Shown: piece after piece, positions 3,884-62,410 of the stretch
Numbering within the stretch: position 1 is the stretch's first letter
How the letters are laid out: each line of letters starts with the position of its first letter
Origin: Octopus vulgaris
Lineage: Eukaryota
Length of the DNA: 64,000 nt
Assembly: GCA_951406725.2 (NCBI GenBank)
Contig: OX597820.1
Span: 39,246,001 to 39,310,000, forward strand
Direction: 5' to 3'
Made by a program: the position numbers and the translations under genes
Notes under the pieces: generated by a model
The model's database searches: none
The model's input: only the letters and a program-made list of their open reading frames with translations
Told to the model about the DNA's origin: nothing

Positions 3884-4023
3884 ATATATTAGAAGAAATA
3901 AGGTACTCAGAAATCTGGATGGCTTTATATTTACACATTATTATTAATATGTCACATGTTTTTATAAATCATATATTAGCGCTTGCATCCACTCTAGTGG
4001 ATCCTTATTTCTTCTAATATATA
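3884..4023. repeat. Short inverted-repeat element next to (TA)n
   Basis: atatattagaagaaataagg (3884-3903) is the reverse complement of ccttatttcttctaatatat (4003-4022). The left part matches 22131-22195. Confidence 0.6.
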
Positions 4024-4383
4024 ATACGTGTACATCATCTCCAAACCTTCTAATATATCTACTTATAAGAATTTACGATAAACAAGTTTATATAAATTAT
4101 TCCTTCGTACGTTTTACCATCGTGGTCGTTTGAACACTGCTATGGATCTTCCAGTTACAATTGAATACATAACCACATTGTACATAGAAACAATTAATAT
4201 CATCCTGTGTTTATCGTAATTTAACTTTTTGTGTATATCATAACTAGTAACACTAATAAGTATAGTATTAGATTAACCACCATACTAGAATATGTTTGGC
4301 GGTGATGATCTACGTACAGTTCTGAACATAATAGTAGAAGCCGTACATCTATTTGTACACACAAGATACTCTGTGTATATGTG

Positions 4384-4434
<51 letters not shown>

Positions 4435-4855
4435 TAGCATTAAAGACCCGTCGTTGCCGGGTCATAGTGCTAGTGCATGTATATATGTGTATATATATGT
4501 GTACATATTACATGTACATCTATATATATACATCTACACATAAAATGCAAAATACAAAGTTATATCTTGATATCGCTAGTGATAACAATACTCAAAATAT
4601 ATAACAGACTGGAATTGTCTTATTATTACCCACAAGGGGCGAACATAGAGGGGACAATACAATCTGATGTGGGGTCAGATATACGAATGGGTTTACAAAA
4701 AAGGCGAATTTAAGAGTTTACAAAAATTACAAAAATAGAAAAAATCGAATGGAGAACAGACCGGAAGACATTACGGATGGAGTGGGAGCGGGTTTAGCTT
4801 GGACCCCACGAGCCCTGCCTCCCCACTGATACTTTGGTTTCGTCTATGTTTACAT

Positions 4856-5944
4856 TTATGTGGTATCATCCACTCGCAACTTTCGTGCTACATCTTTCCA
4901 TCGTTCTTCATACACTCTCTTAGTCAGGCATTTTCTCTCCAGCCCTATCTTCCTTTTCAGGTGAAAAATGAAGTAATTCATCAAACCAGGGCCGGAGATG
5001 AACTTGCCTGACCGTAAACCTTTCATTCTCGTCTTCCATATCACCTCTTTCGCAATTGCTACTACAACGAGAAAACAATTCTTACCTTCTTTCGCGAGGA
5101 AATCTGGTGGGTCAATTTTTGTAATAGACTCAGTCGACAGCTGTACTCTTCGTGTGCTTGACAACAGCTGTTCGGCATAAACCCACACCTCAGACACGAC
5201 CGAACAATGAACAATAGCGTGCGGGACGGTTTCCCTATCCCGCTCGCAACTTGGACATATCGGACTGTCTTGGCCACCGTGCCTTGCGAGTTTAGCCCGA
5301 ACAGGTAGAGCTCCTCTGTAGCATTGCCATGCCAGAGACTTCTGGAAGTTGTCCAGTGTCTTCGGCTCGAACGTATGTCGGAACAGACTGGCCAGCTGAT
5401 TATCGTCGAGACCTAGGGTTTCCCCCAAGGTATCTTCACATTCCGCCTCTACCAACCCTCTATAGAAGAATGTGGTGGAACCCCCACCGCAGCCGTTGCC
5501 CGAGCGACGGAATAGCAGGAGAGCCTTGCGACACTCCGTGTACCATGTGCCCAGTTTCGATCTACGATTCAGCCAGGTTTCCCATCCACCGAAACTAGTG
5601 AACTTGGGAAACATCAGTTTTGCTAGCGGAGACCACACCCGTTCACCATCCAGGTAGAGCCACAGATGTCTTAACCTCAGCGCATGTCTGCGCATCATCA
5701 GCCAAGGCATCCCTAGCCCACCCTTTAACGGTTGTTGACAGCAAGTAGAGCGTTTCACAAGTGGTTTCCCGCCCTTCCACAAGAAGTAGAAGAGCTGTCT
5801 TTCCAACTTGATCAACCACGAATCAGGGCAAGGAACGACGGAAAGGCGGTAGGTGATAACCGATGCGATAAACACATTGGCTACCTCCGCCCTCCCTTTC
5901 AGGGATAGCCACCGCCAAGACCAGGTCTTGGTTACTGCAGCCAC
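4856..5944 (-). pseudogene. LINE ORF2 C-terminal segment (post-RT region plus zf-RVT-like CxxC...HxxxxC)
   Basis: WSWRWLSLKGRAEVANVFI, FLWKG, GGLGMP, CPSCERDRETVPHAIVHC and IWKTR are typical of L1/Tx1 ORF2 C-termini. Confidence 0.9.
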
Positions 5945-6107
5945 CCTGCTCGATACCTCGCCTCAATTCTTCTCTATTTGGAGGTCTGGACAGAACCAAA
6001 CCCCTAGCAACTTAATCGGACCTTCCGTCCAACGTCCCACGACGCTGTCAGGAGGCATCGACTTGCCTCTTCAGGTACCGAGTTGCAAGCCGACTGACTT
6101 TTCGCGA

Positions 6108-6767
6108 TTAACTTTTTGCTCCTGTCACCGTCTCGTAAACCTCTATGGCCTTGCCTACTTTACGTAGGTGATCCATTTCGGTTACGATGATGGTGATGTC
6201 ATCCGCGTACGCTGACACCGATTTTCCACTACCTGGCTGTCTCGGGATGCCGCTCAGTTTTCGCAGTAATGGCTCAAGAGCCATCACGTACAAAATCGGG
6301 GAGAGCGGACACCCTTGACGAACCGAGCGCTTGATGTTGAACGGCTTCGACAAGAAGCCGTTCACCCGAACTACCGAGTCGATGTTCTCGTAAATTTGGA
6401 TAATCCACCTGAGGAAGCCAAGGCCCAGCCCGAACTGTGCCAGGGCAGATACCAGGTAGCGATGGTCGACCCTATCGAATGCTTTAGATTGGTCTAAATG
6501 GACCAGTTCCCCACCCTTGCCAGAATCACTATTAAACCCCTCTATAGTGTACCGCATAAGATGGAGATTATCCTGAATGGTTCTGCCGGGAACGGCACAT
6601 GGCTGTGCCTCCCCGATCAGACCATCTGCGACACGCGCCAATCTTTTCGATAAAACTTTGGCCAAAATCTTCAACTCTGTGTTTAGCAGAGTGATGGGCC
6701 TGAAATTATCAATGCACTCCCCCTTGCTCGGGTCCTTTCTGACGAGTGTCACTACTCCCCGGCGCAC
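6108..6767 (-). pseudogene. LINE ORF2 reverse transcriptase core
   Basis: NFRPITLLNTELKILAK, LDQSKAFDRVDH, VRQGCPLSPILY and AYADD. Frameshifts on both sides. Confidence 0.96.
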
Positions 6768-6870
6768 AGATCTGGGTATTAACCCGTTCTGCTGCCAGTT
6801 CGCATAGACCTCCCCAGTGGGTGCCCGAACAAGTCTGGCATACTCTTATATAACTCATAGGGTAGACCAT

Positions 6871-8079
6871 CTAAACCCGGCGCCTTGCCCACGCCGCAGT
6901 CCGCCATCGCTTCAACCACCTCCCCAGGCGTGATTGGCCCTTCACAGCCCTCCGCATCTCGCCCCGATAAAGCGCGGCAGCCTGTCGAAGGAGGTCCGTA
7001 AAGGCCCTCCTCCTATCCAGTCCGCTGCACTCACCGAAAAGCTGAGCGAAGTGCTCCTGAAAGGCCTCACACATCTGGTTTAACGCCGGTCTCTTGGCCG
7101 TCACCTGAACCGCAGAGCCAGTTTTCAAGGCTTCCTCTAATTCCTTAACTACAGTAGATTCCCTCCTAACCTCTCTAGCCACTAATCCTATGCTATATCT
7201 AATAGACTCGAATTTGATGGCTCGCTTGAGGGCATACCACCATTTGTTATTAATGATGGCACCAGATAGCGCCCTCTGGATTATTGTCCTAATCCGGTCT
7301 CTGTACTCCTTAATCGCCAAAAGGGACGTATTAAGTTTCCAGTAACCGGAGCCCCTATTTTTAACCTTATCTATGTCAAGCTTACAGGTGACCATTTTAT
7401 GATCACTGTAGCTGACCAGGTAAAACTTTGGACACTTAGCTATTTTTCTGTCTACTTTTCTAATTAATATCCTATCTATAAATGACCTGGAAGATCCGTC
7501 GCTGTTTGACCATGTCCACAATGGAGCGTTCGGAAATTCCAACCTATAAGGATCTGCTAGCTCAAAGTGGCTTAGCAGTTCCAGGAAGCCAATGTTACCT
7601 TTTCTATCTGGACGCAAGCCAACACAATCTACATCCGTTTTGCAAATTGTGTTAAAGTCTCCTAGCACAACTAATGAATGCGAAGTACCAAGAAAGTTTT
7701 CCAGTTCTCGAAAATAATCACTTTGCCCTTTTTGGTTGGGTGTGTAAATTGCAACCAGTCTGATAACTTTACCGTTACCGAACGTCAAATCCATGACGAC
7801 CAGCCTACCTTCTGGGTCTGAAAAAATTAACTTTTTCTCAAAAACCCGGTTTCTTTTTAATAGGACCAATACCCCACCCCCGCCTGTAGGACTGGCCGGA
7901 GAGAAAAAACTCTCGTAGCCGTCAAACAGTGGGAGTAGACCTCTTGGCCCCTCTAACCGGGTTTCTGTAGCAACAATAACATCCAAATTACGCGACCTTA
8001 TATCATTAAGGAAGCGACATTGCTTCCAGCTTGATCCCAGGCCGCACACATTTAAACAACCAACATAAATGCAATCCAT
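6871..8079 (-). pseudogene. LINE ORF2 apurinic-like endonuclease domain and linker
   Basis: LNVCGL, ATET, AIYTPN, LGDFN, WTWSN...SFIDRIL, SDH and GSGYWKLNTSLL. Confidence 0.95.
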
Positions 8080-8271
8080 GACTTACCTTATATCAGTAGT
8101 TCGACTTGTTCGACTTGTTTTTCTTCTTCTTCTTCACTTTTATTTTTTTCCTGGGTTCGTGGGGGAGTCCGACGCAGGCCCTCGTATAAATATGGAGATA
8201 TGTCCAATCTCAGAGGGCCCACGTCGTGAAAGAATTCGGATTTTATCCGTCCGTAATCCTTCCGGCCTATT

Positions 8272-9453
8272 CTATAAACAATACAAGTCTTTTGTTTTTT
8301 TAATTTTCTCCACCTTGGCCATGGCTGCCAAAACGTTAATTAGCCTGTTGTTGGCAGCCTTAATGGCCATAAATGTATTCGTCGCTTCTTTCCTCTTTTT
8401 TTGGCTCTCTTTCTGAGGGGTGGTTTCTGTTTTCCGTTTTTTTGGGGGGTAATTTTTGACCACCCCTCCTCTTTTTCCTTTTCTTCACCACTTGTTGTTT
8501 CTGTTGCTTCTTTGGTTTCTGTAGTTTCTGGTGTTTTCTCTTCTGTTTTCTCTTCTGTTTTTTCTTTTTCTGGCGGTGCTGCTTCCTGCGGTCTAGGTTG
8601 GCACTCCGCTCTCACGTGCCCTTTTTTACCGCAGCCGAAGCACCTCGGCTTTCTGCCCTCCACAAACACAAACACCCTCTCCTCCTCGCTGATCCTCAAT
8701 ATCTCTGGAATTTCTTCCAACGTCTGGACCTCCGCCTGTATCGCCATTGAGATGCATTGACCTTGCCAATACTCCTCCTCCTCTACTGTAGCCTGGAGGA
8801 TAGTGATCTTGTCCTCCAGGCCTAACAACACTGCCACCACTAGGCATGTGGCATCCGCTTCTGGCGGAATATTTTTTATTAATATTCTTGAGGTCCTTCT
8901 GCCTCTGTACAGGGGGAGGAGGATTATATTCTCCGCTTTTAGAGGTTCGGTTGATAGCTTCTTGGCTATCTCCTCAGTCCTGAACCTCACCTCAGCCGTT
9001 CCAAATTTTCTGCCACGGTTTATATACGTGATGTCCTTCCATATTGTCTTTAGACAATTCTCGATTTTTTCTCTTCCACTCTTTGAATGGTTTTCATCGT
9101 CGTATTGTATGTTTTGTAAATAATCCTTCTGTTATCTACTTCCTCTGTCTTTTTGACGTCTGGTATCACTGTTACTTCATTACCTTCCTTTTTCAAACAT
9201 GCTGCATATTTTTCTAAGTTGCTTTTATCCGTGTTGATTTTTTTCTGTTTTTTCCTGCAACTTCTGCGAACTTCTTCGCTGGGGCTTCTTCTATTTTCGG
9301 CGTCACCGCCGGTGAAATTTCTTCCCCTGATACAGGTGAATAGGAGATTGGAGTCTCCATCTCTGGATGGGCCTTTTCAATTGGCTTTAACAAGCCTTCA
9401 AAAAAAGAATTCTGGCTTCGCAAGCCTTTTATGTGTATTTTAAACTGTTGCAC
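8272..9453 (-). pseudogene. LINE ORF1 (Gag-like nucleic-acid-binding protein with CCHC knuckle), frameshifted
   Basis: Pieces at 9214-9453, ~8990-9220, 8340-8990 and 8272-8463. VEGRKPRCFGCGKKGHVRAEC (CX2CX4HX4C) is followed by an E/K/T-rich tail. Confidence 0.88.
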
Positions 9454-9634
9454 AATAATTGTTTCACAACAATTCCCCCGCAGGGGGGAATTTTAATACG
9501 TAGCCTTCGCGCGAAGGCTAATAACAGTTTTACACAAAATACACAATATATAAAACAAAGTAACAATAATTAACTTAACAAACCGGTAATAAACAGCAAT
9601 CGACAAAACAGACTGGCGTATAACAGACTGGAAT

Positions 9635-11549
9635 TGTTTTATTCCTACCCACAAGGGGCAACATAGAGGGGACAATACAATCGGGAAAAATAAAATAATG
9701 AATTATGAAGTTTGTACAATGTGGTGTAATGCCCACTCGATCCCCGAAATCGAGCGGTTACATTTCGTCATTTTTTTATTACGTCAACAATATTTTCCAA
9801 ATAAAAACATTTTACACATTTTCAACAAACATTTCAACAATCTTAGAAAGTTCAACGTATTTTTTTTCAGAATTTAAAGTTCTTTTTATCATTTCCAAAT
9901 TAAAGTTTTCACAATACCTTTTCTTTTATATATACTCCATTATCTCTACCAAATCTTGGTAAATTTCCATCATTCGTGGCCACCTTGTAAGTCGGCATTT
10001 CATATGTTTTGACACGTTCTTGCCAGCTGCCTCGATGAACGCCTCAGCGTCGTTCTCGTGGACGAGTGCACCCGTTTCTTTCCATTCGGTGCCCATCCTG
10101 ACCCACGTATATCCATTTGTTACGTTTATTAAATCTTCCATCTCCTCACAGTGCCTGTGATGGATCAATGTTCCATAGTATTTGAATTTTCTATTCGTAC
10201 CTGCATTTTCTCTAGTTTTTCTCTTAGGACTTACTTCCTCTTTTTTCTCCTCTCTCGGTTTCTCTCTTTCTCTCTTTTTGCTTTCTCTTCTTTCTTTTTC
10301 CTTCTCTTGTCTTTTTGGCTCTTTGTCTGTCGTCTCTCTACCCTGTGCCTTATGTTCCTTTCCTGTTGTTTCTTTTCCTTTTTGCATACCATCTTTTCCT
10401 TTCTCTTGGTTCTGTCCCTTCTCTTGTTCTTTTCCTGTTTTTTCTCTTTCCTTTAATGTACTTTCCTTTTCTTTCTCTTGCTTCTGCCTTGGCTCCTTCT
10501 CCACTACTTCTCCACCCTGTGAATTTTGTTCCTTTTCTACTATCTTCTTCCCTTTGTTTTCATTGTCCTTCAGTGCGCTGTTACTTCCCTTCTCTTGTAG
10601 TTTCTCCGTTATTTCCTTTTCCTTGTTTTCGCTGTTCTTTCCTTCGTGTTCTTTTTCCTTCTCTCCACTTTGTGTCTCTTTTTGCTCCGCTGTGAATTCA
10701 TACAGCGGACATTCCTTTTTTATGTGCCCTCTTGACCCGCACAAGTAGCAATTCGGTTTTCTCCCCTCCACAATTACACTAATTGTTTTCTCGTTTTCTA
10801 TTTCTATTTGGAAGGGAAACCTTTCGATATCTTCCATTGTGGCCATCAGCCACAACTCTACTCCGAATCCCTTCCAATTTACAACGTTGCTCTCCTTGAC
10901 TGACCCTATTTCTACTTCCTCCTTTGCTGACCCTAGAATGGCTGTTACCAGCATTTCTGTTTTTATTTCTGGGGGCACCTTTGGGACTCTTACCCGTACC
11001 CCTCGTCTTCCTTTATACGTCGGCCACATAGTGAAATTTTCGGCTTTCAAACAGTGGAAGCTAATGAGGCCGCCACTTCCTTTGTTGCGCATCTCACCTC
11101 CACCGTACCATATTTCTTACCTCTGTCTACAAAAGTCGCTTTTTTCATAATGTCCCCCAGACATTTCTCTATTTCTTCAATCGTCACTCTCACCAGTTTT
11201 CTCGTGTTCCTATATTGCGTTCTATACGTTATCGTCTTGTTATTTCTCTCCTCTATTGTTTCAACAGGCGGGACCAGCTTCACGCTGTCACCCTCCCTTT
11301 TGACGAACTTCTCGTATTCCTTCAATTGTTCTTTTCTAAAGAACACTTCTCTTATTCTAAGAGACTCATCCCTTTTTGTTGTGGCGACCCCCGTGTAAGT
11401 CTTCATGACTAAGGGGTCAACACACCTTCTATAAAAGGTTCAAACACGCAGCGGCAGACGCCTCGTGCGATTCAATTTTTTGACAATTTTTTAACAGTTT
11501 TTTTTCCAAATTTTTCACATACAAAATAACTAACCAACACACTCAATGA
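9635..11549 (-). mobile_element. ORF1-only non-autonomous retroelement ('half-Tx1'), copy 1
   Basis: Consists of a short 5' UTR, one Gag-like ORF and a 3' UTR ending in the LINE-like tail. No APE or RT. Bounded by AGACTGGAAT (9625-9634) and AGACTGCAAT (11550-11559). Confidence 0.88.
9926..11406 (-). CDS. ORF1/Gag-like CCHC protein (~490 aa reconstructed), one frameshift near 11050
   Basis: ORFs 11047-11406 and 9926-11092 join when compared with copy 2. Contains VEGRKPNCYLCGSRGHIKKEC, a long K/E/Q-rich linker and a ~85-aa C-terminal domain (FKYYGTLIHHRHCEEMEDL...EIMEYI). Confidence 0.8.
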
Positions 11550-11559
11550 AGACTGCAAT

Positions 11560-13489
11560 TGTTTTATTCCTACCCACAAGAGGCAACATAGAGGGGACAA
11601 TACAATCGGGAAAAATAAAATAATGAATTATGAAGTTTGTACAATGTGGTGTAATGCCTATTCGATCCCCGAAATCGAGCGGTTACATTTCGTCATTTTT
11701 TATTCGTCAACAATATTTTCCAAATACAAAACCTTTTACACATTTTCAACATACATTTCAAAAATTTTAGAAAGTTCAACATTTTTTTTTTCAGAATCTA
11801 AAGTACTTTTTATCATTTCCAAATTAAAGTATTCACAATACCTTTTCTTTTATATATACTCCATTATCTCTACCAAATCTTGGTAAATTTCCATCGTTTG
11901 TGGCCACCTTGTAAGTCGGCATTTCATATGTTTTGAGACGTTCTTGCCAGCTGCCTCGATGAACGCCTCGGCGTTGTTCTCGTGGACGAGTGCACCTGTT
12001 TCTTTCCATTCGGTGACCATCCTGACCCACGTATATCCATCTGTTTCGCTTATTAAATCTTCCATCTCCTCACAGTGCCTGTGATGGATCAATGTTCCAT
12101 AGTATTTGAATCTTTTATTCGTACCTGCATTTTCTCTAGTTTTTCTCTTAGGACTTACTTCCTCTTTTTTCTCCTCTCTCGGTTTCTCTCTTTCTCTCTT
12201 TTTGCTTTCTCTTCTTTCCTTTTCCTTCTCTTGTCTTTTAGACTCTTTGTCTGACGTCTCTCTACCCTGTGCCTTATGTTCCTTTCCTGTTGTTTCTTTT
12301 CCGTTTTGCATACCATCTTTTCCTTTCTCTTGGTTCTGTTCCTTCTCTTGTTCTTTTCCTGTTTTTTCTCTTTCCTTTAATGTACTTTCCTTTTCTTTCT
12401 CTTGCTTCTGCCTTGGCTCCTTCTCCACTACTTCTCCACCCTGTGAATTTTGTTCCTTTTCTACTATCTTCTTCCCTTTGTTTTCATTGTCCTTCAGTGC
12501 GCTGTTACTTCCCTTCTCTTGTTGTTTCTCCGTTATTTCCTTTTCCTTGTTTTCGCTGTTCTTTCCTTCGTGTTCTTTTTCCTTCTCGTTTTTGTTCTCT
12601 CTCCACTTTGTGTCTCTTTTTGCTCCGCTATGAATTCATACAGAGGGCATTCCTTTCTTATATGCCCTCTTGACCCGCAGAAGTAGCAATACGGTTTTCT
12701 CCCCTCCACAATTACACTAATTGTTTTCTCGTTTTCTATTTCTATTTGGAAGGGAAACCTTTCGATATCTTCCATTGTGGCCATCAGCCACAACTCTACT
12801 CCGAATCCCTTCCAATTTACAACGTTGGTCTCCTTGATTGACCCTATTTCTACTTCCTCCTTTGCTGACCCTAGAATGGCTGTTACCAGCATTTCTGCTT
12901 TTATTTCTGGGGGCACCTTTGGGACTCTTACCCGTACCCCTCGTCTTCCTTTATACGTCGGCCACATAGTGAAATTTTCGGCTTTCAGTTCAGTGGAAGC
13001 TAATGAGGCCGCCACTTCCTTTGTTGCGCATCTCACCTCTACCGTACCATATTTCTTTCCTCTGTCTACAAAAGTCGCTTTTTTCATAATGTCCTCCAGA
13101 CATTTCTCTATTTCTTCAATCGTCACTCTCACCAGTTTTCTCGTGTTCCTATATTGCGTTCTATACGTTATCGTCTTGTTATTTCTCTCCTCTATTGTTT
13201 CAACAGGCGGGACCAGCTTCACGCTGTCACCCTCCCTTTTGACGAACTTCTCGTATTTCTTCAATTGTTCTTTTCTAAAGAACACTTCTCTTATTCTAAG
13301 AGACTCATCACTTTTTGTTGTGGCGACCCCCGTGTAAGTCTCCATGACTAGGGGGTCGACACACCTTCTATAAAAGGTTCAAACACGCAGCGGCAGACGC
13401 CTCGCGCGATTCAATTTTTTGACAATTTTTTAACAGTTTTTTTTTCCAAATTTTTCACATACAAAATAACTAACCAACACACTCAATGA
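11560..13489 (-). mobile_element. ORF1-only non-autonomous retroelement ('half-Tx1'), copy 2
   Basis: Colinear, highly similar copy of 9635-11549 with scattered substitutions. The right boundary is AGACTGGAAT (13490-13499). Confidence 0.88.
11850..13345 (-). CDS. ORF1/Gag-like CCHC protein, one frameshift near 12590
   Basis: ORFs 12533-13345 and 11850-12428. Contains VEGRKPYCYFCGSRGHIRKEC. A 14-nt extra segment (cgtttttgttctct) relative to copy 1 shifts the frame. Confidence 0.8.
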
Positions 13490-14170
13490 AGACTGGAATG
13501 TTAGCTCTTCTTTTTTCTCTACATTGTATACTTTATAGACAATAGTCTTTTCTTTAATCGAATTTTTTATTATCCATCTGGACTATTCCATTTCTGCACG
13601 CTAATTTTATTTTTAATTTAATTCCCATTCATGTGAAACCACTTATTCAAGTTCAAATCATTGATGCAATTTTATACCAATTGCTATTTTTACTTATATT
13701 ATACTTTAGTTTGATTTTAATTATTACTTACTACATATAATCCAATTGTTATTATTATTTTTATTGTTAAAGTGAAAGCATCTGACATAAAAATAGAGAA
13801 ATATTTTTGTTTCACTTTTAACACGTAATACTGAAATAGTGGAGAAGATATGATATTGCTATGGGCTCGCTCTAGGCAAGAAGTTGAACATTTTGTTTGC
13901 CCATGAAAGTACATTGACCCTAAGTAAGGTATGTGTAAAATTTGAATGAAATTGGTTGTGTAGTTCTCAAGTTTTAGGGAATCGTAGTGGAAAAGAAATG
14001 ATATTATTGTGGGCTTGCCCTAGACAAAAAGTTAAATTTTTTTGCCGATAACACTCCCCGGACCCTAAGTAAGGCATATGTAAAATTTGAATGAATTTGG
14101 TTTTGTAGTTCTCAAGTTTTAGGGAAACACACAGACAGACAGACACATATTCTCAGTTTTATATATATAA

Positions 14171-14223
<53 letters not shown>

Positions 14224-14611
14224 GGGGGTGATTGAGTGTGCGTGAGTGTGTGTGTACAGAGAAAGAAGGAAAACTTGAGAGATATAGAAAACAGATAGAC
14301 AAAGTCATTAGTGTGAACTGCCGTTAAGCAGCAAAGTATAATCAATATGGTTAAAACGGTATATCTTCCAGAATGTGTCTGTTTTAATGCCTTTTCCGAA
14401 TTTCTCATTCTTGTTAAATATATTCCATATTTGCCCTGCAGTCTAATGTAGTTTGTGAATCCTAACCCATTAGTAAGTATTTATTCAGCACTTTGCACTA
14501 ATTTTACATCGATAAATATCCGATAAATATATATAAAAACTCTTAAATTTCATAATATAGTGTTATCTTAAATTACACGATGTAATTTTTATCGTAAATT
14601 TCAACGTAACA

Positions 14612-16626
<2,015 letters not shown>

Positions 16627-17233
16627 ATGTGATCTATTTCTAGCATATGGCTGTCCACATCGTGGTTTTTAGCCCTAAATATATACATGTATTGGAATTT
16701 TCTCTGATTTTCCAGATTTTTATATGCTAGGCTACTGGTTTTAAATTGATATTAATTAAATTAATATTCAATTTATCTCCCTCATTATTTAAATGTTAAA
16801 ATAATTATGATCTCTAATACGCAGCATTAACTGCAGTAGATTATTTGCAGCAGATTTTGTTTCCGGAATTTAGCGCGCCAGAACTCATACATTTGAAATT
16901 AACCCCAATGTAATCGGTGGAACTAAGCACGTGTCTGGTTTTATACAGAAAACTGGTGGTTAGTTTTACAAATTATATTGCTTTTGGAACGATCGTACTG
17001 ACGAGTTCTACGGACGAAGGATTACGTAAGTAATTTACTCGTTGATAGACGAAACCGGTATACGATTAATTCTTGATTTTTATATAATTTTTATCTGTCT
17101 TGCCCGCCTATTGTTCTGGTGTCCGCTGAATTTTCTCTAGAGAACATTCTTTCTTTTTATTTTTGATCGTATGTGATCTATTTCTAGCATATGGCTGTCC
17201 ACATAGTGGTTTTTAGTCATAAATATATACATG
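16627..17233 (+). mobile_element. Terminally redundant, apparently non-coding hammerhead-containing element (retrozyme-like or Penelope pLTR)
   Basis: A 63-bp direct repeat at 16627-16689 and 17171-17233 gives a period of 544 bp. It has an internal hammerhead and is followed by (GATA)n. Confidence 0.7.
16992..17066 (+). ncRNA. Type I hammerhead ribozyme
   Basis: ATCGTA-CTGACGA-[helix II: TCTA/TAGA, GACGA/TCGTT, GATTAC-GTAA-GTAATT]-GAAA-CCGG-TA-TACGAT. Helix I is ATCGTA/TACGAT, helix III is the palindrome ACCGGT, and the GUA cleavage triplet ends at 17060. Confidence 0.88.
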
Positions 17234-17238
17234 GATAG

Positions 17239-17294
<56 letters not shown>

Positions 17295-19074
17295 GAATGT
17301 GTGTGAATGCATTTAGGAGCGAGATGAAAGAAATTATATATTTGTAGAGTGTGGGTGGAGTCGAGGGGATGGTAGAGTCAGTTTCTCTGGTTTGATAATT
17401 TATAGGAAAAAATCTTTATCAACTCAAACACTTTAAAAATAGGTGAAAATTTCTTAATAGAAAACTAACATCAACGCTAATTTTAACCTCGCTTTGAGGT
17501 ACGCTCTGTAACAAATCGAATTGACATTATCTGCAAACATCTTATATGATACTAAAATAGCACAACACCATCTTAGAAATCCTTACGTGTCCTATCTAAG
17601 CCAAGAACATTAATTAATCAGCAGAGAACCATCGAGCAACACAAATTCTGACATGAACCAACATGCAAATTTACTTCATATAATCTGCTTTGAAAACATG
17701 CCTAACAGAACCCACACAATTCGTTTATCAAACACGAAAATTGTCCCTTCCTCTCCAGTCTTACCCGCCTGCTCTTCCCTATTTATCCTTCGTAAATGGA
17801 CACTCCTGATTACAAATTCATTGATACCCCACCTAATCTTCATATATATTATCCCATCCACCGAAGGAACACCTTGCCATAAACAGTACATGTGAAGCTC
17901 GGACACAAAACTAAACCACAGCCGAATTCGTTAGAAAGCCGAAACTTCGAAGTTACTGCCAAACTTTTTTTTGTCAAAATTAATTATGATTGTATGTTTA
18001 TTTTTGGCTGTGTGTTTGTGTATGTAAGCATGCATATATGTACGTACGCACGTATGTATGTAGGTATGTATGTATGTTTGTATGCATGTATGTATGTATA
18101 ATGCCCGTTTATCTTTATACTAGTGTCCTTCATAATACGGCAGTCATGCGTCTAGTGTTTTAGCCGATCGTATTTGCACTAGCACTTATTTCAATCTGGT
18201 ATATATCATTTTATCCAGGCGATAATAAACGGGTATAACATAAAAGAGAAACATCAGTTTTTAGAAAGTATCGGTTTTCGAAATAAGCATCAGCTCAGAT
18301 GCCTACATTCTTACACATCTTTTCACTACTGTCTCTTGTCCTCTCCACTCTCTCTCCTTCTGAACTCGAGTCTGCTATCGGGGATATGTGCCCCCAGCTT
18401 CTGTGCTTGGGAATAAAGTCGGGAAAGACTTGGTTAAGAAGTAAACTTTCTAATTATACATTTGCTTCTTATGCGTCTATTCGTGACAGCGCTTGTATTT
18501 CGTTTGCTGATGTAAAAAAAAAAAGGTGTTGTATCAACATTTGATAAATACAGAAAGAGTACTAGACTGAAATATTTACTGGGGTTGAAATGACCAAATA
18601 AAATTTCTGGAATGCGATGCCCCATCATTGCCACAGTTACATCACTCAACCTCAGGAAAAAATGGATAAACGCATAGTTAAGTAGGTTATGTCCCTCATC
18701 CCTTCAAGGTTAACAAAATAGAAATATTAATTATATACAAGGAGACGATTACGTCAAACTTTTGCCCTGTATTATCATCCATGTGGTTTTCAGGCTTGCT
18801 CAAATAAGAAACATTTTATTTGGTGGATTAAGACGAATGCCGCAAGTTAATCTTGCAGATAATTTTAGCAGATAGAACTAAATATCTATTAGTGAAAGTA
18901 ATACTTCTCTGTCAATTGTCCTAATTGATTATTCATTATAACTGTTTGGAAATAATTACCACATCGTTCCACCATTCATCTGCGAATTAATTCAATTAAT
19001 TAATTTCTGAAACTTTCCGTTACGTACACGCGCATACATATGCGCGCGCATGGCTGTGTGGACGCGTATATAAG

Positions 19075-37300: not shown

Positions 37301-38731
37301 TAACAAATGACCAGCGGAAAGAAATTTAAATAGAAAAAAACTGAATCTTTTTGATTTTCCAGAACAATTTTCATTTATGTATATTTTCTCACAAAATATA
37401 TTGCCTGTATGTTCTGTTTGCTTGTTTCACTAGAGATGATTGTAAAAGGTAAACCAGTAACCGCATTTTTTCAGCGGTTATCTGATTATTTCTTAGGAAT
37501 GAACGTTTTAATACCAAAATGTTAAGCGTGATTACTCCAAACATAGACTAAATGAGTTGTTTTGAGAGGCCAAAACATCACTGATCTTATCATAAATCGA
37601 TTTTAATTTAGGAACCAAGGCAAATGAACAACAAAATTAGGAAGAACGCCACCATCATAATGTAAGATTTGATTGTATGGCAGAGCTAACATTGTCATTC
37701 TAGGACATGTATTTAAAACATATTGCAGAATAATCTATATTATTAAAATTAACTGTTGCCCTAAAAAATTACTCAGAATTTCTGGACAACTACCTATCTT
37801 CTGATCATAATTAAATATGAAGTCATTTTTAACAATTTAAAAGAAAAAGTCAACACCAAATACTGCGTTATTAGTACTTGGTGCATAAATGCACAAAACA
37901 TTGATAGTAGATAGTATCGGACGGTAATCAATTGTCATGGGGGCCAGAATTCCCAAATGTGATTTCATTCTACTGGAAATCATCAGTGGAGGGGGTCTGG
38001 CTCCTGCATGCCAGTAAAATATCGCAGTTATGGCATATAAAATATCAGCATCTTTTCAGATACTGATGTGTGTGTGTGTCTGTGTCTGTGTGTGTGTGGT
38101 TATAGATATAGACGTGTATACCTATATTCATATATGAATGTATCTATGTAAGCAATCCTTGGCTAAACTCCAGTGCATTAATACAGAGTTACAATGATGC
38201 GTACATTTGTGTCTGTCTCTATATAGCGAAATTATATCTTCGTTTTTACATATTTTAGTTGAGAGAAAAAGCAGCCCCAGGGTTTTATTACATGGCCCCC
38301 GAAACTATTAGGAAGGATGCAGGTAACTATCCTCAAGCTGGAATGCTTACAACAGAGTGACTACTGCAAAACAAAAAGAGAAAGTTCACGAAGATACTAG
38401 GAGGTAGTGTTAAACCAGTTGATGAGTTAATCCTACCATCCAATTAAACCATTCTAGGACATGAACTCAGAACGCAAAGAGCCGGAATAAATACCGTCTA
38501 CCCACCGCTTTAGATTGGTATATTTATATCAACCACGAATGGAGGAAAAGGGAAGTTGACCTCGGTTAGATTTGAACTCTCGGAGTACATAGATAAAATA
38601 CTGTAAAGCATTTTGTACAACGCTCTAACGACTTTGCCAGTGCACCACCTGTTAGGGCATTTTTAAACCGCTTCGAGTGATGAACTGTTACTTCTTTTAT
38701 ACACATATTCTATATGATAATCTATATGTCT

Positions 38732-48729: not shown

Positions 48730-48846
48730 GAAAGAAGAAGAAAAGAAGAAGAAGAAGAAGAAGAAGAAGAAGAAGAAGAAGAAGAAGAAGAAGAAGAAGA
48801 AGAAGAAGAAGAAGAAGAAGAAGAAGAAGAAGAAGAAGAAGAAGAA
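48730..48846. repeat. (GAA)n microsatellite at the tail of a family-3 SINE fragment
   Basis: Directly visible. It produces the poly-K/S/L pseudo-ORFs. Confidence 0.97.
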
Positions 48847-48914
48847 TCCTTTCTACAAGGAGGTAAGGTAAGTGTTTCATTGGTGCTTAATTTATCGACC
48901 CCAGAAGGATGAAA

Positions 48915-49360
48915 GTCTTCGCAGCCCATTTCTGGGTAAGACTGGCCGCCCTGTTTGCCACTTCGTCCCAGTTTTTATTGGGACGAAATCAGATCCCGAG
49001 CAGTTTAACTGGCCCGTCGGTCCAGCGTCCTACGACCGTCCGATGGCATCGACCTGCCTCTCTAGGAGCCCAACCGCAAACCCACAGATTTGCAGGCGTT
49101 TTATTTTTAGCCTTTGCAACCGACTCATATCCCTTTAGGATAGTACCAACCGTCTCCACTTCGGAGGCATCCGACACCATTACGATGGCATCGTCCGTGT
49201 ATGCACACACTGCCCTTCTGTATCCCACTTCGAAGGGGATGCCTCAACTGTTCCAACTTACGCAGCAGTGGCTCGAATGTCAATACCTACAGAAGAGGCG
49301 AGAACATGCAACCCTGACGGATGGAGCGTGCGATGCCAAACGGTTCCGAACCTAGTACGG
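48915..49360 (-). mobile_element. Diverged Tx1-like RT fragment
   Basis: AVCAYTDDAIVMVSD...GYESVAKAK...VVGRWTDGPVKLLGI, homologous to 5980-6330 of the long LINE. Confidence 0.85.
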
Positions 49361-55170: not shown

Positions 55171-56241
55171 AAGTGCCCTGCCTGTGTCCAAGATTTCCGC
55201 AAATCGAACCATGGACACATGGCTGGCACTTGACTGATGGCCGATGATGGTGTTATGTTAGGACGACATAACAATTAAGGCGAGGAATTTTTCCAACGCT
55301 CTAACGATTTTGTAAATTTTCAACTAGTTATAAAAATACTACGACAGCTACATTCTCTATTAAAGAAAACTGAAGATTTAGTATAATGGCAAACCAACAA
55401 ATTTTAAAGGAATCAAATGAATGAGCGAGCTTCAAATCTACAACTAGTTATAAAAATTTCTGACAGCTACATTCTCTACTCTAAATTTACCTCAAGCAAA
55501 AAAGGCGGCGAGCTAGTAGAATCATTAGCACTCCGAGCAAAAATGCTTAATGACATTCCTCCTGTCTACACGCCCTGATTTTCAAATTCAGCCGTGATCG
55601 ACTTACCCTTCCGTCACTTTCAGGCTCAATAGAATAGGCACCATTCGAACACTGGGATCGATGTAAGTGACTTACCGCCCCTACCCTGAAAATTGGTAGC
55701 TTTGTGCTAAAGTTTGAAATCAATTTACCCCCCAGAGAAAACTGAAGGTTTAGTATAACGACAAGCCTACAAAAATTAAACGAGGGAAGTGAATAAGCGA
55801 GCTTCAATGAGTCTGTATTAGTGACATTATATTTATTAACCAGCATACTACTTTCCTTCTAGTGTCTTTAAATCTAAAATTATGCTGAAGCTAGACTGAA
55901 TATATTATTCTTCATAATTGGTTTAGTGATTTGTTTACTGTGTATAATGCAGTATTTTCTCGACATTATTGTTGAAACAGCTGACAATTATATCATAGTG
56001 ATGTGGTGCAATTTGGTTGTTGTTGCTTAAACAGACATTAAGTACATAAGTATAGAAAAAATTAATGTCTAAACAGAAAGTAGAGACAGACAAAAAAATA
56101 ATAATGTAGTTTTCATAACGCCCGATATTAATTGAGAAAGCAACAGGCAATCTTTTGACTTTTAAGCCATCACAACTAACGCACGAACACAAACACAAGC
56201 GCACGCACGCAACCGTTTCTTGTTTCGCCCGAGGGTGTAAA

Positions 56242-56738
56242 GGTGGCTGTAAGGAAAAAGGCCGGATTTCCAGGAGTTCTCAGTTGAAGTGGCTGTCGGG
56301 AAAAGTGCCGGATTTCGAGGAGTTCTGTCCGGAGGTGGCTGTCGGGAAAAGTGCCCGATTTCCGGGAGTTCTGTGTGAAGATGGCTGTCGGGAAAAGTGC
56401 AGGATTTCCGGGAGTTCTTTGTGGAGGTGGCTGTCGGGAGAAGTGCCGGATTTCTGGGAGTTCTCTGTTAAGGTGGCTGTTGAGAAAAGTGCAGGATTTC
56501 CGGGAATTCTGTGATGTGGCTGTCGAGAAAAGGCGAGTTTCCGGGAGAGATATTTGGAGTTGGCTGTTATGAAAAGTGCTGGACATCCCCCCGATGCTCT
56601 GTTGGAGATGGATGTCAGGAAGAGTGCCGGATTTCCGGTATTTCTTTGATGAGGTGGCAATCGAAAAAAGTGCCGGATTTCCGGGAGTTCTGTGTGGAAT
56701 TGGCTGTCGGGAAAGTACCGGATGCCGGGAGTTCTGCG
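56242..56738. repeat. GC-rich minisatellite, ~38-39-bp unit, about 13 copies
   Basis: Unit approximately GGTGGCTGTCGGGAAAAGTGCCGGATTTCCGGGAGTTCT. Confidence 0.93.
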
Positions 56739-56740
56739 TG

Positions 56741-58015
56741 TCGTTAAATGAAATTAAATAACGTTATATGAGTGACGTTACATGGCGTTGAATGACGTTA
56801 AATGACGATCAAATGATGTGAACTTAAATTACATTAAATGACGTTAAATGACGTGACGTTAAACGACGTAAAATAACGTTAAATAATGTTACGTTAAATG
56901 TCGTTAAATGACGCTACATGACGTGACGTTAAATGGCCTAAACTGACGTTAATTGACGTGGCGTTAAATGACGTTAAATGATGTCATATTAAATGAAGTT
57001 AAATTAGGTGACGTTAAATGACATGACGTTAAATGACGTTAATTGACGTAGCGTTAAATAGGTTGAATAACGTTAAATGACGTGACGCTAAACGACGTTA
57101 AATGACATGACGTTAAATGACGTGATGTAAAATGACGTTAAAGGACGTTATATGGGTGACGTTAAATTACGCTAATTGACGTGACGTTAAATGACGTTAA
57201 TTGACGTAACGTTAAATGGAGTTGAATAAAGTTAAATGACGTGACGGTAAATGGCGTTAAATGACGTCAATTTAACGTCATTCATGTAATGTCATTTAAC
57301 GTCATTTTATATCACGTCATTTAAAGTCCTTTAACGTCCCTTAACGTCATTTAACCTCATGTCTTTTAACGACATTTAGCGTCACGTAACGTCACGTCAT
57401 TTAGCGTAATTTAGCGTCACCCATATAACGTCAATTAACGTCATTTTACATCACGTCATTTCACGTCATTTAAAGTCACGTTATATGAGTGACGTTAAAT
57501 TACGCTAAATGACATGACGTTAAATGACCTTAATTGATGTAAGGTTAAATGGCGTTGAATAAATTTAAATGACGTGACGGTAAATGACGTTAATTTAACG
57601 TCACTCATGTAATGTCATTTAACGTCATTTTACATCATGTCATTTAAGGACCTTTAACGTCATTTAACGTTACTTAACGTCACGTCATTTAGCGTAATTT
57701 AACGTCACCTATATAACGGCATTTAACATCATTTTACATCACGTCATTTAACGTCATGTCATTTAACGTCATTTAAGGTCGTTTACCGTCACCTCATTTA
57801 AAGGTTATTCAACGCCATTTAACGTTACCTCAATGAACGTCATTTAACGTCATCCATATAACGTCATTTAACATCATTTTACATCACGTCATTTAGCGTA
57901 ATTTATCGCCATTTAACGTCGCTTATCATCACGTTATTTAACGTCAATCAACGCCATTTAACGCTACGTCAATTAACGTCATTTAACGTCACGTCATTTA
58001 GCGTAGTTTATGTCG
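56741..58015. repeat. AAATGACGTT-based satellite, block 1, with internal inversions
   Basis: 10-bp core with 5-bp variants. Orientation flips near 57268, 57480 and 57592. Confidence 0.93.
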
Positions 58016-58233
58016 CCTAAGTTATGTCTATAGCTTGTCTATAGTTCTGTCTATAGTTTTAAACTATAGTTTTGCCTGTAGTTTGCCATAGAAATTTCAA
58101 CCTATAGTTTTAGCCTATAGTTTGTCTATACATGATCCATAGATTTTAATGATTTTTCTATAGTTCTGCCTATAGTTTTAGCCTATAGTCTTGCCCATAC
58201 TTTGCCTATATTTTGCCTATAGATTTAGCCTAT
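58016..58233. repeat. (G/T)CTATAGTTTT-based minisatellite
   Basis: Units of 11-13 bp with a palindromic CTATAG core. Confidence 0.9.
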
Positions 58234-58655
58234 ACATTCCAGATATTTCGGACATTACCGGCATTCCAGACATTCCGAACATCCCAGCCATACCAGATAT
58301 TCCAGACATTCCAGTCATTTCACCTGACTAATAAAATACAGTTCGCCAAAAGCAAGCCATAAAATAGCAGACATTTCACAATTCTAGACATCACCGGTAT
58401 TACAAACATTCCGGACATTCCACACATTCCATACATTCCAGACATTCCACATATTCCAGGTATTCCAGGCATTCCAGAATGACATTCCAGAATGACATTC
58501 CAGACATTCCACGCATTCCTGACGTTCCTTTATATGACGTGACAATAAATTCCATTCCATGTCGTGACAAGACGTGACATTCCATTTTATTCAAAGACGT
58601 GAAATGACGTGACATTCCATGACGTTCCAGATATTGAGGTATTCCACACACCCGA
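58234..58655. repeat. GACATTCCA-based 9-bp minisatellite
   Basis: Repeated gacattcca variants. They produce the ECL/ECV pseudo-ORF. Confidence 0.88.
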
Positions 58656-58659
58656 GGTA

Positions 58660-61600
58660 TTAAATGACGTAACGTTAAATGGCTTTAAATGACGTAATGA
58701 TAAACGACGTTAAATGACGTGATGTAAAATGACGTTAAATGACGTTATATGGGTGACGTCATTTAACGTCATGTCATTTAACGTCGTTTACCGTCACGGC
58801 ATTTAACGTCATTGAACGCCATTTCACGTTACGTCAGTTAACGTCATTTAACGTCACTCATGTAATGTCATTTAACGTCATTTTACATCACGTCATTTAA
58901 CGTCCTTTAACGTCATTTAACCTCAAGTCGTTTAACGTCATTTAACGTCGCTTACCGTCAAGTCATTTGGCGTAATTTAACGCAACACATATAACGCAAT
59001 TTAACGTCATTTTACATCACGTCATTTATCGTCATTTAACGTCATGTCATTTAACGTCATTTAACGTCGTTTAACGTCCTTTAACGTTATTCAACGCCAT
59101 GTAACGTAATGTCTATTAACGTCATTTAACGTTACGTCATTTAGCCTAATTTAACGTCACACATATATAGTCATTTAACGTCATTTTAAATCACGTTATT
59201 TAACGTCATTGAACATCATGACATTTAACGTCATTTAACATCATTTACCGTCACGTCATTTAACGTCATTTAACGTCATTTTAAATCACGTCATTTAACG
59301 ACACATCATTTAACGTCACGTAATTTAGGGTAATTTATCGTCACACACATATAGTCATTTAACGTCATTTAACGTCATTTAACGTCATGTCATTTAACGT
59401 CATTTAACATCGTTTAACGTCATTTAACGCCATTTAGCGTTGCGTCAATTAGCGTCATTTAGCGTCACGTCATTTAGCGTCACGTCATTTAGCGTAACTA
59501 AACATCACCCATATAACAACATTTAACGTCATTTTACATCACATCATTTAGTGTCATTTAACGTCACGTCATTTAACGTATTTTAATGTCACCCATATAA
59601 CGTCATTTAACGTCATTTAACATCATGACATTTAACGTCATGTAACGTCGTTTACCGTCAAGTCATTTAACGTCATTTTAAATCACGTCATTTTACGTCA
59701 TTTAACGTCATGTCATTTAACGTCATTTAACGTCGTTTACCGTCACATCAATTAACGTCATTTAACGTCACGTCATTTAGCGTAACTTAACTTCACCCAT
59801 ATAGCGTCATATAATGTCATTTTACATCACGTCATTTGACTTCATTTAACGTCATTTAACGTCATTCAACGTCACGTCATTTAGCGTATCTTAACGTTAC
59901 CCATATAACGTCATTTAACGTCATTTTACATCACCTCATTTAACGTCATTTAACATCATGACATTTAACGTCATTCAACGTCGTTTACCGTAACGTCATT
60001 TAACGTCATTAAACGTCATTTTAAATCACGTCATTTAACGTCATGTCAGTTAACGTCACTTAACATCGTTTACCGCTGTATCATTTAATGTCATTTAACG
60101 TCACGTCATTTAGCGTAATTTAACATCACACATATAAATGACGTCATTTAACGTCATTTTAAGTCACGTTATTTATCACGTCATGTCATTTAACGTCATT
60201 TAACGTCGTTTAACGTCATTCAACGTCGTTTACCATCACTTCATTTAATGTCATATAACGTCATTTACCGTCGTTTGACGTCATTCAACGCCATTTAGCG
60301 TTACGTCAATTATCGTCATTTAGCGTTACGTCATTTAACGTAACTTAACGTCACCAATATAACGTCATTTAACGTCATTTTACATCACGTCATTTAACGT
60401 TATTTATCGTCATTTTACATCACGTCATTTAACGTCATTTAACATGACATTTAACATCATTTAAAGTCATTTAACCTCATTTAACGTCATTTTAAATCAC
60501 GTCATTTAACGTCAGTTAACGTCATGTCATTCAACGTTGTTTACCGTCGTTTACCGTCACATCAGTTAACGTCTTTTAACGTCAAGTCATTTAACGTCAT
60601 TTAACGTCGTTTACCGTCACGTCATTTAACGTCACGTCATTTAGCGTATTTTAACGTCACACATATAACGTCATTTAGCGTCATTTTACATCACCTCATT
60701 TAACGTCATGTCATTTAACGTCATTTAACGTCGTTTACCTTCACATCATTTAAGGTCATTTAATGTCATTTTAAATCACATCATTTAACGTCATTTAATG
60801 TAATTTTAAATCACATCATTTAACGTCATTTAGCGTCATGTCAGTTAACGTCACTTAACGTCGTTAACCGTCACATCATTTAACGTCATTTAACGTCATT
60901 TAGCGTAATTTAACGTCACACATATAAAGATAGTTAACGTCATTTAACGTCATGTCATTAAACATCATTAATGTCGTTTAACGTCATTCAACGCCATTTA
61001 ACTTTACGTCAATTAGCGTCATTTAGCGTCACGTCATTTAGCGTAACTTAATGTGACCCATATAACGTCATTTAACGTTATGTTACATGACGTCATTTAA
61101 CATAATTTAACGTCATGACATTTAACCTCATTTAACGTCGTTTAGCGTCACGTCATTTAACGTCATTTTAAATCACGTCATTTAACGTTATGTCATTTAA
61201 TCTCATTTAACGTCATTTCACGTCGTTTACCATCACATCATTTAACGTCATTTAACGTCACGTCATTTAGCGTAATTTAACGTCACATGTATAAAGTCAT
61301 TTAATGTCATTTTAAATCACGTCTTTAACGTCATTTAAAGTCATGTCATTTAACGTCATTCAACGTGGTTTAACGTCATGCAACGTCATTTACCGTCATG
61401 TCATTTAACGTCATTTAACGTCACGTCATTTAGCTTAAATTAACGACACCCATGTAACGTCATTTAACGTCATTTTACATCACGTCATTTAACTTCGTTT
61501 AACGTCATTTAACGTCGTTTACCATCACGTCATTTAACGTCATTTAACGCCATTTTAAATCATGTCACATAACGTCATTTAAAGTCATTTAACGTCGTTT

Positions 61601-62410
61601 ACAGTCACATCATTTAACGTCACGTTATTTAGCGTAATTTATCGTCACACATATATAGTCATTTAACGTCATTTTAAATCACGTCATTTAACGTTGTTGC
61701 CCGTCACATCATTTAACGTCACGTCATTTAGCGTAATTTATCGTCACATATTTATAGTAATTTAACGTCAATTTATATCACGTCATTTAACGTCATCTCA
61801 TTTAACGTCATTTAACGTCATTCAACGCCTTTTAACGTTACGTCAATTAACGTCATTTAGCGTAACTTTACCTCACCCATATAACATCATTTAACGTGAT
61901 TTTACATCAAGTCATTTCATGACATGACGCTAAATGACGTTAATGACTTGATGTAAAATGACGTTAAATGACGCTATATGGATGACGTTAAGTTACGCTA
62001 ATTGACGTAACGCTAAATGACGTTAATTGTCGTAACGTTAAATGGCGTTGAATGACGTTAAACGACGTTAAATGACTTTAAATGAGATGACGTTAAATGA
62101 CGTTAAATGACGTAATTTAAAATGACGTTTAATGACTATAAATGTGTGACGATAAATTATGCTAAATGATGTGACGTGAAATGACGTTAAATGATGTGAC
62201 GGTAAACGACGTTAAATGACGTGATTTAAAATGACATTAAATGACTATGTATGTGTGACGATAAATTACGCTAAATGACATTTAACGTCATTTAACGTCA
62301 TTTAACGTTATTTACTGTCACATCATTTAACGTCATTTAACGTCACGTTATTTAGAGTAATTTAACGTCACCCATATAACGTCATTTAACGTCATTTTAC
62401 ATCACGTCAC
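58660..62410. repeat. AACGTCATTT-based satellite, block 2, with higher-order units and inversions
   Basis: Recurring higher-order landmarks (tagcgtaatttaacgtcacccatataacgtc, ttttacatcacg, ttttaaatcacg, gtttaccgtcac). Orientation flips near 58757, 61919 and 62280. Confidence 0.95.

Follow-up and report, generated by a model that had tools for sequence, protein, structure and literature searches.

Several long interspersed elements (LINEs) of the Tx1 group have other repeats as their targets. Tx1L of Xenopus laevis targets the piggyBac-type element Tx1D (PMC4494074, PMC1950540); in crocodilians, Tx1-Mar inserts into Mariner-N4_AMi and Tx1-9_AMi into Harbinger elements, and other Tx1 targets comprise long terminal repeat (LTR) elements, U2 genes and microsatellites (PMC4494074). 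SINEU-3 has inserted sequentially in tandem, with a target duplication between the copies, and the preference of the SINEU families is partial, from 13 to 90%; Kojima calls a family target-specific when more than 20% of its flanks lie in one repeat type (PMC4494074). Here we describe a stretch of 64,000 nucleotides from Octopus vulgaris (assembly GCA_951406725.2, contig OX597820.1, positions 39,246,001 to 39,310,000; hereafter the window, whose own numbering is used throughout) in which three LINE-derived units lie between two Helitron-type ends. Unit C is a decayed L1/Tx1-type LINE, units A and B encode only the first of the two LINE open reading frames (ORF1), and the two flanks, H5 and H3, are probably the parts of one non-autonomous Helitron.

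As in the Tx1L/Tx1D pair, a LINE with an apurinic/apyrimidinic (APE)-type endonuclease is found at a defined site in a non-autonomous DNA transposon. In contrast to that pair, the octopus target is Helitron-like and not piggyBac, the LINE copy is dead, its clade is provisional and specificity for the host family is a candidate only. With Tx1-Mar and SINEU the locus has in common an autonomous LINE and a non-autonomous partner at one DNA-transposon site, and tandem copies with the target duplication between them, whereas the octopus partner encodes ORF1 and has no small nuclear RNA match. As Rfam gave 0 matches over the whole window, an RNA-gene target is ruled out. No description of a LINE with a Helitron target was found in the literature searched, with subscription papers and Repbase mostly outside it, which does not establish absence from print; the main text of PMC4494074, figure 3 and supplements apart, contains 0 occurrences of Helitrons, and the part of the Dada account consulted (PMC8869645) describes no Helitron target. 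Further background was taken from PMC8967140, PMC4758252 and PMC5753468.

Helitron-type ends and a duplicated target delimit the array

The nested structure is real and well-bounded. The initial annotation had placed Helitron-like ends about 9.7 kb apart, both in (TA)n, and direct reading of the minus strand confirmed them. The 5' terminus is TC at 14173-14172, preceded by A at 14174, and the 3' terminus is CTAG at 4437-4434, followed by T at 4433. An element inserted between A and T with no duplication of its target would show this register, but the flanks are themselves (TA)n microsatellites, on the 5' side (14174-14220) as on the 3' side (4376-4433). On the minus strand, H5 (13500-14173) starts with a TA-rich head followed by a (CTGT)n/(GT)n run at about 14127-14147 and two 145-bp repeats (13837-14126) that are 83% identical. 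H3 (4434-4599) contains a degenerate TA/CA repeat at about 4474-4540 and a GC-rich hairpin at 4445-4463, with a stem of 6 bp, a loop of 7 nt and a gap of 7 nt to CTAG. The 40-nt 3' end has a folding energy of -10.1 kcal/mol (z = -5.1), and 0 of 200 shuffles were equally stable. A detector for a hairpin plus CTRR followed by T found 3 sites in the window, whereas 25 windows resampled by dinucleotide averaged 0.44; two of them are the end at 4434-4473 read on either strand and the third, at 37485, is weak. The 5' pattern TC...TATA...TAAA has its sole match at 14173, a circular result as the pattern was derived from this same end. When the array is removed and one target duplication is retained, 856 bp are left, in agreement with the residue of about 0.85 kb with a single target copy that had been proposed. 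Stop-free frames reaching this empty-site junction are at most 47 amino acids (aa) long.

These terminal features are those of the insect non-autonomous Helitron Hel-2, for which a 5'-TC, a 3'-CTAG, flanking A/T, a 3' stem-loop and (CTGT)n near the 5' end are reported (PMC4344730); the two are likened by description and not by sequence. Unlike Hel-2, the octopus element has two 145-bp internal repeats, a near-palindromic 3' end and no subterminal inverted repeat between its flanks.

The outer and inner junctions of the array carry one short motif. The window has 3 exact copies of the 10-mer ATTCCAGTCT (13490, 9625 and 4606) and one copy with a single mismatch at 11550, and these are the four junctions. 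All are on the minus strand: the left-hand copy of the target duplication (10 bp, 13490-13499), the mismatched 10-bp copy between A and B (11550-11559), a 16-bp copy between B and C (9619-9634) and the right-hand copy, also of 16 bp (4600-4615, with the 10-bp core at 4606-4615). The two 16-bp copies are identical, so that the duplication around unit C measures 16 bp. The probability of the 10-mer at any given place is about 1e-6, unless it belongs to the elements' own heads.

Because the termini face each other, the 10-mer is present at both outer junctions and H3 is apparently high-copy (see below), we consider it likely that the array splits a single Helitron-type element. It is improbable that the flanks are separate, H5 being a 3'-truncated Helitron and the end at 4434-4473 belonging to another element or facing the opposite way, the two having come together through a deletion or because two LINE arrays recombined at a motif common to them. 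This origin would suit the near-palindromic nature of that end (CTAGCA...TGCTAG about the hairpin, with a second CTAG at 4470-4473 followed by T at 4474), owing to which a Helitron 3' end can be read equally well on the plus strand, and the microsatellite-like character of 4474-4540. It would also suit the lack of any repeat common to H5 and H3, TA runs excepted, and of subterminal inverted repeats, the local scores of the subterminal comparison being equalled in 122 and 175 of 200 shuffles. As no empty copy was seen either, the unity of the flanks depends on geometry and on the duplicated 10-mer. Separate flanks would not, however, readily account for the exact register of both ends with (TA)n on either side, nor would they explain why the 10-mer recurs at each outer junction and why what remains has the usual size of a non-autonomous element. 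Location in (TA)n is by itself weak evidence since the window holds 32 (TA)8+ arrays.

The 64-kb window contains no second copy of H5 or H3 except for microsatellite matches. Exact searches with short motifs taken from H5, from the hairpin end and from the tail of the LINE gave 0 matches in viral contigs and 0 in metagenome contigs, and the LINE-tail motif gave 0 matches in prokaryote genomes. The 19-bp hairpin had 14 matches in prokaryote records, which were taken as chance GC-rich matches.

A decayed LINE and two ORF1-only units stand head-to-tail

The three units are all on the minus strand, in head-to-tail order. Unit C (4616-9618) is a full-length LINE in decay. Its ORF1, with a zinc knuckle and a frame break, extends from about 9360 to 8340; its ORF2, from about 8079 to 4856, encodes the APE endonuclease, a reverse transcriptase (RT) and a zf-RVT finger (profiles PF03372, PF00078 and PF13966), and a 3' tail occupies 4616-4664. 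The 9 PDB matches to ORF2 are without exception structures of human L1 ORF2, of its endonuclease or of chimeras of the protein, and the closest named RT relative is a hypothetical protein of Argonauta hians (61%). Compared to intact relatives (about 1150 aa, with 53-55% identity over the RT), ORF2 has lost about 85 residues near 7057-6958 and has frame breaks there, near 6815 and near 6114, together with a stop near 5963; judged by these lesions, unit C is dead. APE, RT and a C-terminal zinc finger in ORF2, a separate ORF1 and the 16-bp target duplication are characters of the L1/Tx1 group. There was no named Tx1 reference among the RT matches and the clade is therefore kept as L1/Tx1-type. 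In O. vulgaris, 80 L1-Tx1 families and 84 Helitron families are reported, both with recently active members (PMC13282606). A second piece of RT from this LINE group, an internal one, lies at about 48857-49355 on the minus strand of the window; over 160 bp its DNA is 68% identical to that of C. It adjoins an (AAG)n run at 48732-48846 and has neither tail nor target 10-mer close by.

Units A (11560-13489, 1930 bp, with a frame break near 12600) and B (9635-11549, 1915 bp, with a frame break near 11050) have the zf-CCHC zinc knuckle and no similarity to ORF2. At the level of DNA they resemble C in the zinc knuckle and in the 3' tail (63 bp, 94% identical) but nowhere else, and ORF1 of A is 37% identical to that of C over 193 aa. 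With ORF1 so divergent and no more DNA in common than tail and knuckle, at least two insertions have taken place at one site. Precedents for non-autonomous LINEs with ORF1 alone are HAL1, HeT-A and Ag-Sponge (PMC5786205, PMC5753468). Like these, A and B encode ORF1 without ORF2 and keep a LINE 3' tail, and can be called HAL1-like; they differ in having an ORF1 of the L1/Tx1 zinc-knuckle type, distant from the ORF1 of the neighbouring LINE, and in their placement at a shared motif. All 6 protein matches to the ORF1 of A are gene models that their source labels Octopus. Model P0171 (Octopus) aligns to the same ORF1 C-terminus at 56%; in model P0175, also from Octopus, the first 244 aa are identical to the ORF1 of unit B (window 10106-10837) and are followed by other sequence, which suggests a transposon-derived or mis-predicted gene.

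Units A and B start and end alike and differ at 54 of 1913 aligned bases (2.8%), with 5 gaps; the ratio of nonsynonymous to synonymous differences (pN/pS) is 0.61 and indistinguishable from 1 (p = 0.19). These figures would be expected if A and B derived from one insertion by local tandem duplication, through unequal crossover at the duplicated target, in which case the array records two insertion events in total. We give this origin somewhat less than an even chance: A and B have no frame break in common, and B-type elements appear to form a multi-copy family for which other tail-to-B-head junctions exist. It is compatible with every reading of the whole array.

A further repeat of the target, CCAGTCTGTT, lies at 9607-9616 within the 5' end of unit C, 16 letters further in, and could be either a target-derived head or a route to self-targeting. 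Zepp-type L1 clusters grow by self-targeting, with related LINEs piling up on each other. The octopus array resembles them in its stacked, related LINEs and in the motif copy at the 5' end of C, and differs in that its units stand head-to-tail at a duplicated target and are not nested in coding sequence.

Public contigs point to a preferred motif

The stretch 4424-11612 was compared with four of 24 public sequencing runs, two of which are sets of contigs, X1 (organism A) and X2 (organism B). For loose ends, joints and difference rows, the statements below refer to the 24, 15 and 40 listed out of 2430, 272 and 842, respectively. As H5 and unit A were outside the compared stretch, a joint bypassing the whole array could not appear. 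All 30 bins of the stretch were covered by contigs of both sets. The first bin (4424-4663) had a mean depth of about 250,000 in each, depths being sums over contig depths and not copy numbers; net of the tail, taken as 29-60 letters wide, 4424-4615 had a depth of 154,000-253,000 compared to 1,496 and 1,296 at 4714, in the 3' untranslated region (UTR) of C. On these depths H3 appears at least 100 times commoner than the C-type LINE, which fits a high-copy Helitron family with mostly empty copies. None of the loose ends, joints and difference rows listed for X1 and X2 fell at the 4600-4616 junction. In the raw-read runs X21 and X22, which bear the species label of X1, 165 and 50 of 12.9 million reads matched 4424-11612, all partly, so that this stretch, rich in repeats, was almost absent from them and yielded no counts of junctions.

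B-type sequences had depths of 24,000-51,000 in X2 and 4,000-18,000 in X1 over the ORF1 and 3' UTR bins, and the 5' end of C had 1,050-1,500; no contig spans a whole unit. Tail-to-B-head junctions with differing letters at 11561 and 11569 were present in 3 X1 and 4 X2 contigs among the rows listed, so tandem stacking is not limited to this locus. One X2 joint connects 11555 to 4620 with 29 letters between, at a depth of 285, which marks it as multi-copy, most long pieces having depths of 37-76. Upstream of its B-type head, 14 of the last 15 letters match the H5 side and 4 of the next 20. Since the match is confined to this 15-nt core, recognition of a motif is favoured and the Helitron as the only context is disfavoured. 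Two further contig features concern relatives of the units. In X1, a joint from 4679 to 8341 (depth 102) connects a C-type ORF1 end directly to the 3' UTR and is possibly a second, C-type ORF1-only derivative; in X2, two contigs leave the B-type ORF1 at the loose end 11124 with the same other letters, as in a relative with a different 5' part.

The initial annotation had suggested that this LINE family may use a Helitron family as a safe-haven target. Preference for a site is supported at this locus, where two lineages occupy one position and where similar junctions recur in two contig runs; specificity for a Helitron family was not shown, as the same 15-nt core precedes a B-type head in an unrelated context. 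It is conceivable, if rather doubtful, that the L1/Tx1 lineage and the ORF1-only partner are specialists, most of their insertions being at a single site in one abundant family of non-autonomous Helitrons. Two lineages at the same nucleotide position inside the element, the apparently high copy number of H3 and the precedent of DNA-transposon targets in the Tx1 clade (PMC4494074) would all agree with such specialisation. Against it speaks the one other readable B-type 5' flank, which matches H5 in its last 15 letters only, and more weakly the absence of H5- or H3-matching ends among the loose ends and joints listed. Moreover, this locus amounts to a single hit on the Helitron because the later insertions beside C require only the duplication made by C. 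We favour instead an L1/Tx1 family that prefers a motif and has met it within one Helitron copy, a reading to which we assign about an even chance.

A number of points weigh against this favoured reading. The left-hand duplication has one letter unlike the other copies immediately upstream of the 10-mer, and the letters CAGTCT may belong to the 5' ends of the elements themselves. An uninterrupted Helitron was not found in the window or in the viral, metagenome and prokaryote collections. The contig evidence covers a small share of the loose ends, joints and difference rows, and summed depths stand in for copy number. In X1, the match to the tail breaks off at 4623 in 92 contigs whose flanks are mixed (agreement 0.49), which suggests that tail-bearing elements insert at many sites, and in X2 a joint from 5425 to 4623 has 25 letters without the motif after the tail. 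The element in this last joint, with 85% likeness, may be a sister family. The 92 mixed flanks were considered as proof that C is unspecific and rejected as such: the depth at 4640, in the 3' tail, is about 500,000 (500,000 and 400,000 in the two runs) compared to about 1,500 at 4714, so the flanks probably belong to another, far commoner repeat that shares the tail. This repeat, hundreds of times commoner, is probably a SINE (short interspersed element) mobilised by the LINE lineage of C, and we presume that it resembles a common octopus SINE.

A last possibility raised from the intact-looking termini was that the composite of Helitron and LINE train had itself been copied by rolling-circle transposition, with the retroelements hitchhiking. 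Recent Helitron activity in O. vulgaris (8 families, 178 insertions; PMC13282606) would have provided the means. The contigs gave this proposal no support and no sign that C, in the form it has in the window, had multiplied. Of 27 unit-C rows to which contigs contribute, 13 have the window letter in no contig of either set (24 of 27 when X1 is taken alone, 16 of 27 for X2). The 27 rows are the best-supported ones after a record filter, row 9560 (raw reads only) having been dropped, and the count is indicative only. In an amplified composite the private changes of C would recur in several copies, and we therefore regard its movement as highly improbable.

Outside the array, a 6-kb satellite block (56235-62245) consists of 46/138-bp repeats followed by arrays, alternately oriented, of 10-bp units of the ACGTCATTTA type. 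It includes a 9-bp ACATTCCAG array (58234-58528) with the same letters as the H5 junction, in which the full 10-mer is never formed.

A possible history of the locus

Target-primed reverse transcription leaves a duplication, by which an intact target is again present upstream of the element that inserted first. This property explains the head-to-tail train, as has been described for the tandem SINEU-3 copies (PMC4494074), and the events can be tentatively ordered as Helitron, then C, then B and A. A non-autonomous Helitron of 856 bp would have inserted between A and T of a (TA)n tract; its termini are observed, and the unity of its flanks is inferred. An autonomous L1/Tx1-type LINE, the present unit C, would then have entered the Helitron by target-primed reverse transcription, duplicating 16 bp. 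The fresh target at the 5' end of C would have taken an ORF1-only element of a related lineage, with a 10-bp duplication, and the second ORF1-only unit would stem from another insertion or from tandem duplication. The ORF1-only units were presumably mobilised in trans by the ORF2 of an autonomous relative. The endonuclease would prefer a short motif around CTAACA(A/T)TCCAGTCT, of which about 10-15 bp may be recognised. The Helitron bears this motif and may supply many targets, as one landing pad among others, and the composite would be a dead, local structure.

A more speculative picture, on which we place modest weight, has three tiers: a non-autonomous Helitron with (TA)n tracts as its insertion sites, an L1/Tx1 LINE lineage specialised on one position within it, and an ORF1-only parasite of this LINE that accumulates wherever the target is restored. 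The LINE tail would be shared by an abundant SINE-like repeat, and Helitron activity would renew the targets and might occasionally carry the cargo.

If most copies of the family do not lie in this Helitron, the locus would be an ordinary nested transposon cluster, mainly useful for repeat curation, as in the case of P0175, which is built on the ORF1 of unit B. If most copies do prove to lie in it, rolling-circle transposons would join the known targets of Tx1-type elements (piggyBac, Mariner, Harbinger, LTR elements, RNA genes and microsatellites). The LINE would then add to the APE endonucleases a new one with sequence specificity, whose motif of 10-15 bp can be read, and in its ORF1-only partner HAL1 would have a counterpart among cephalopods.

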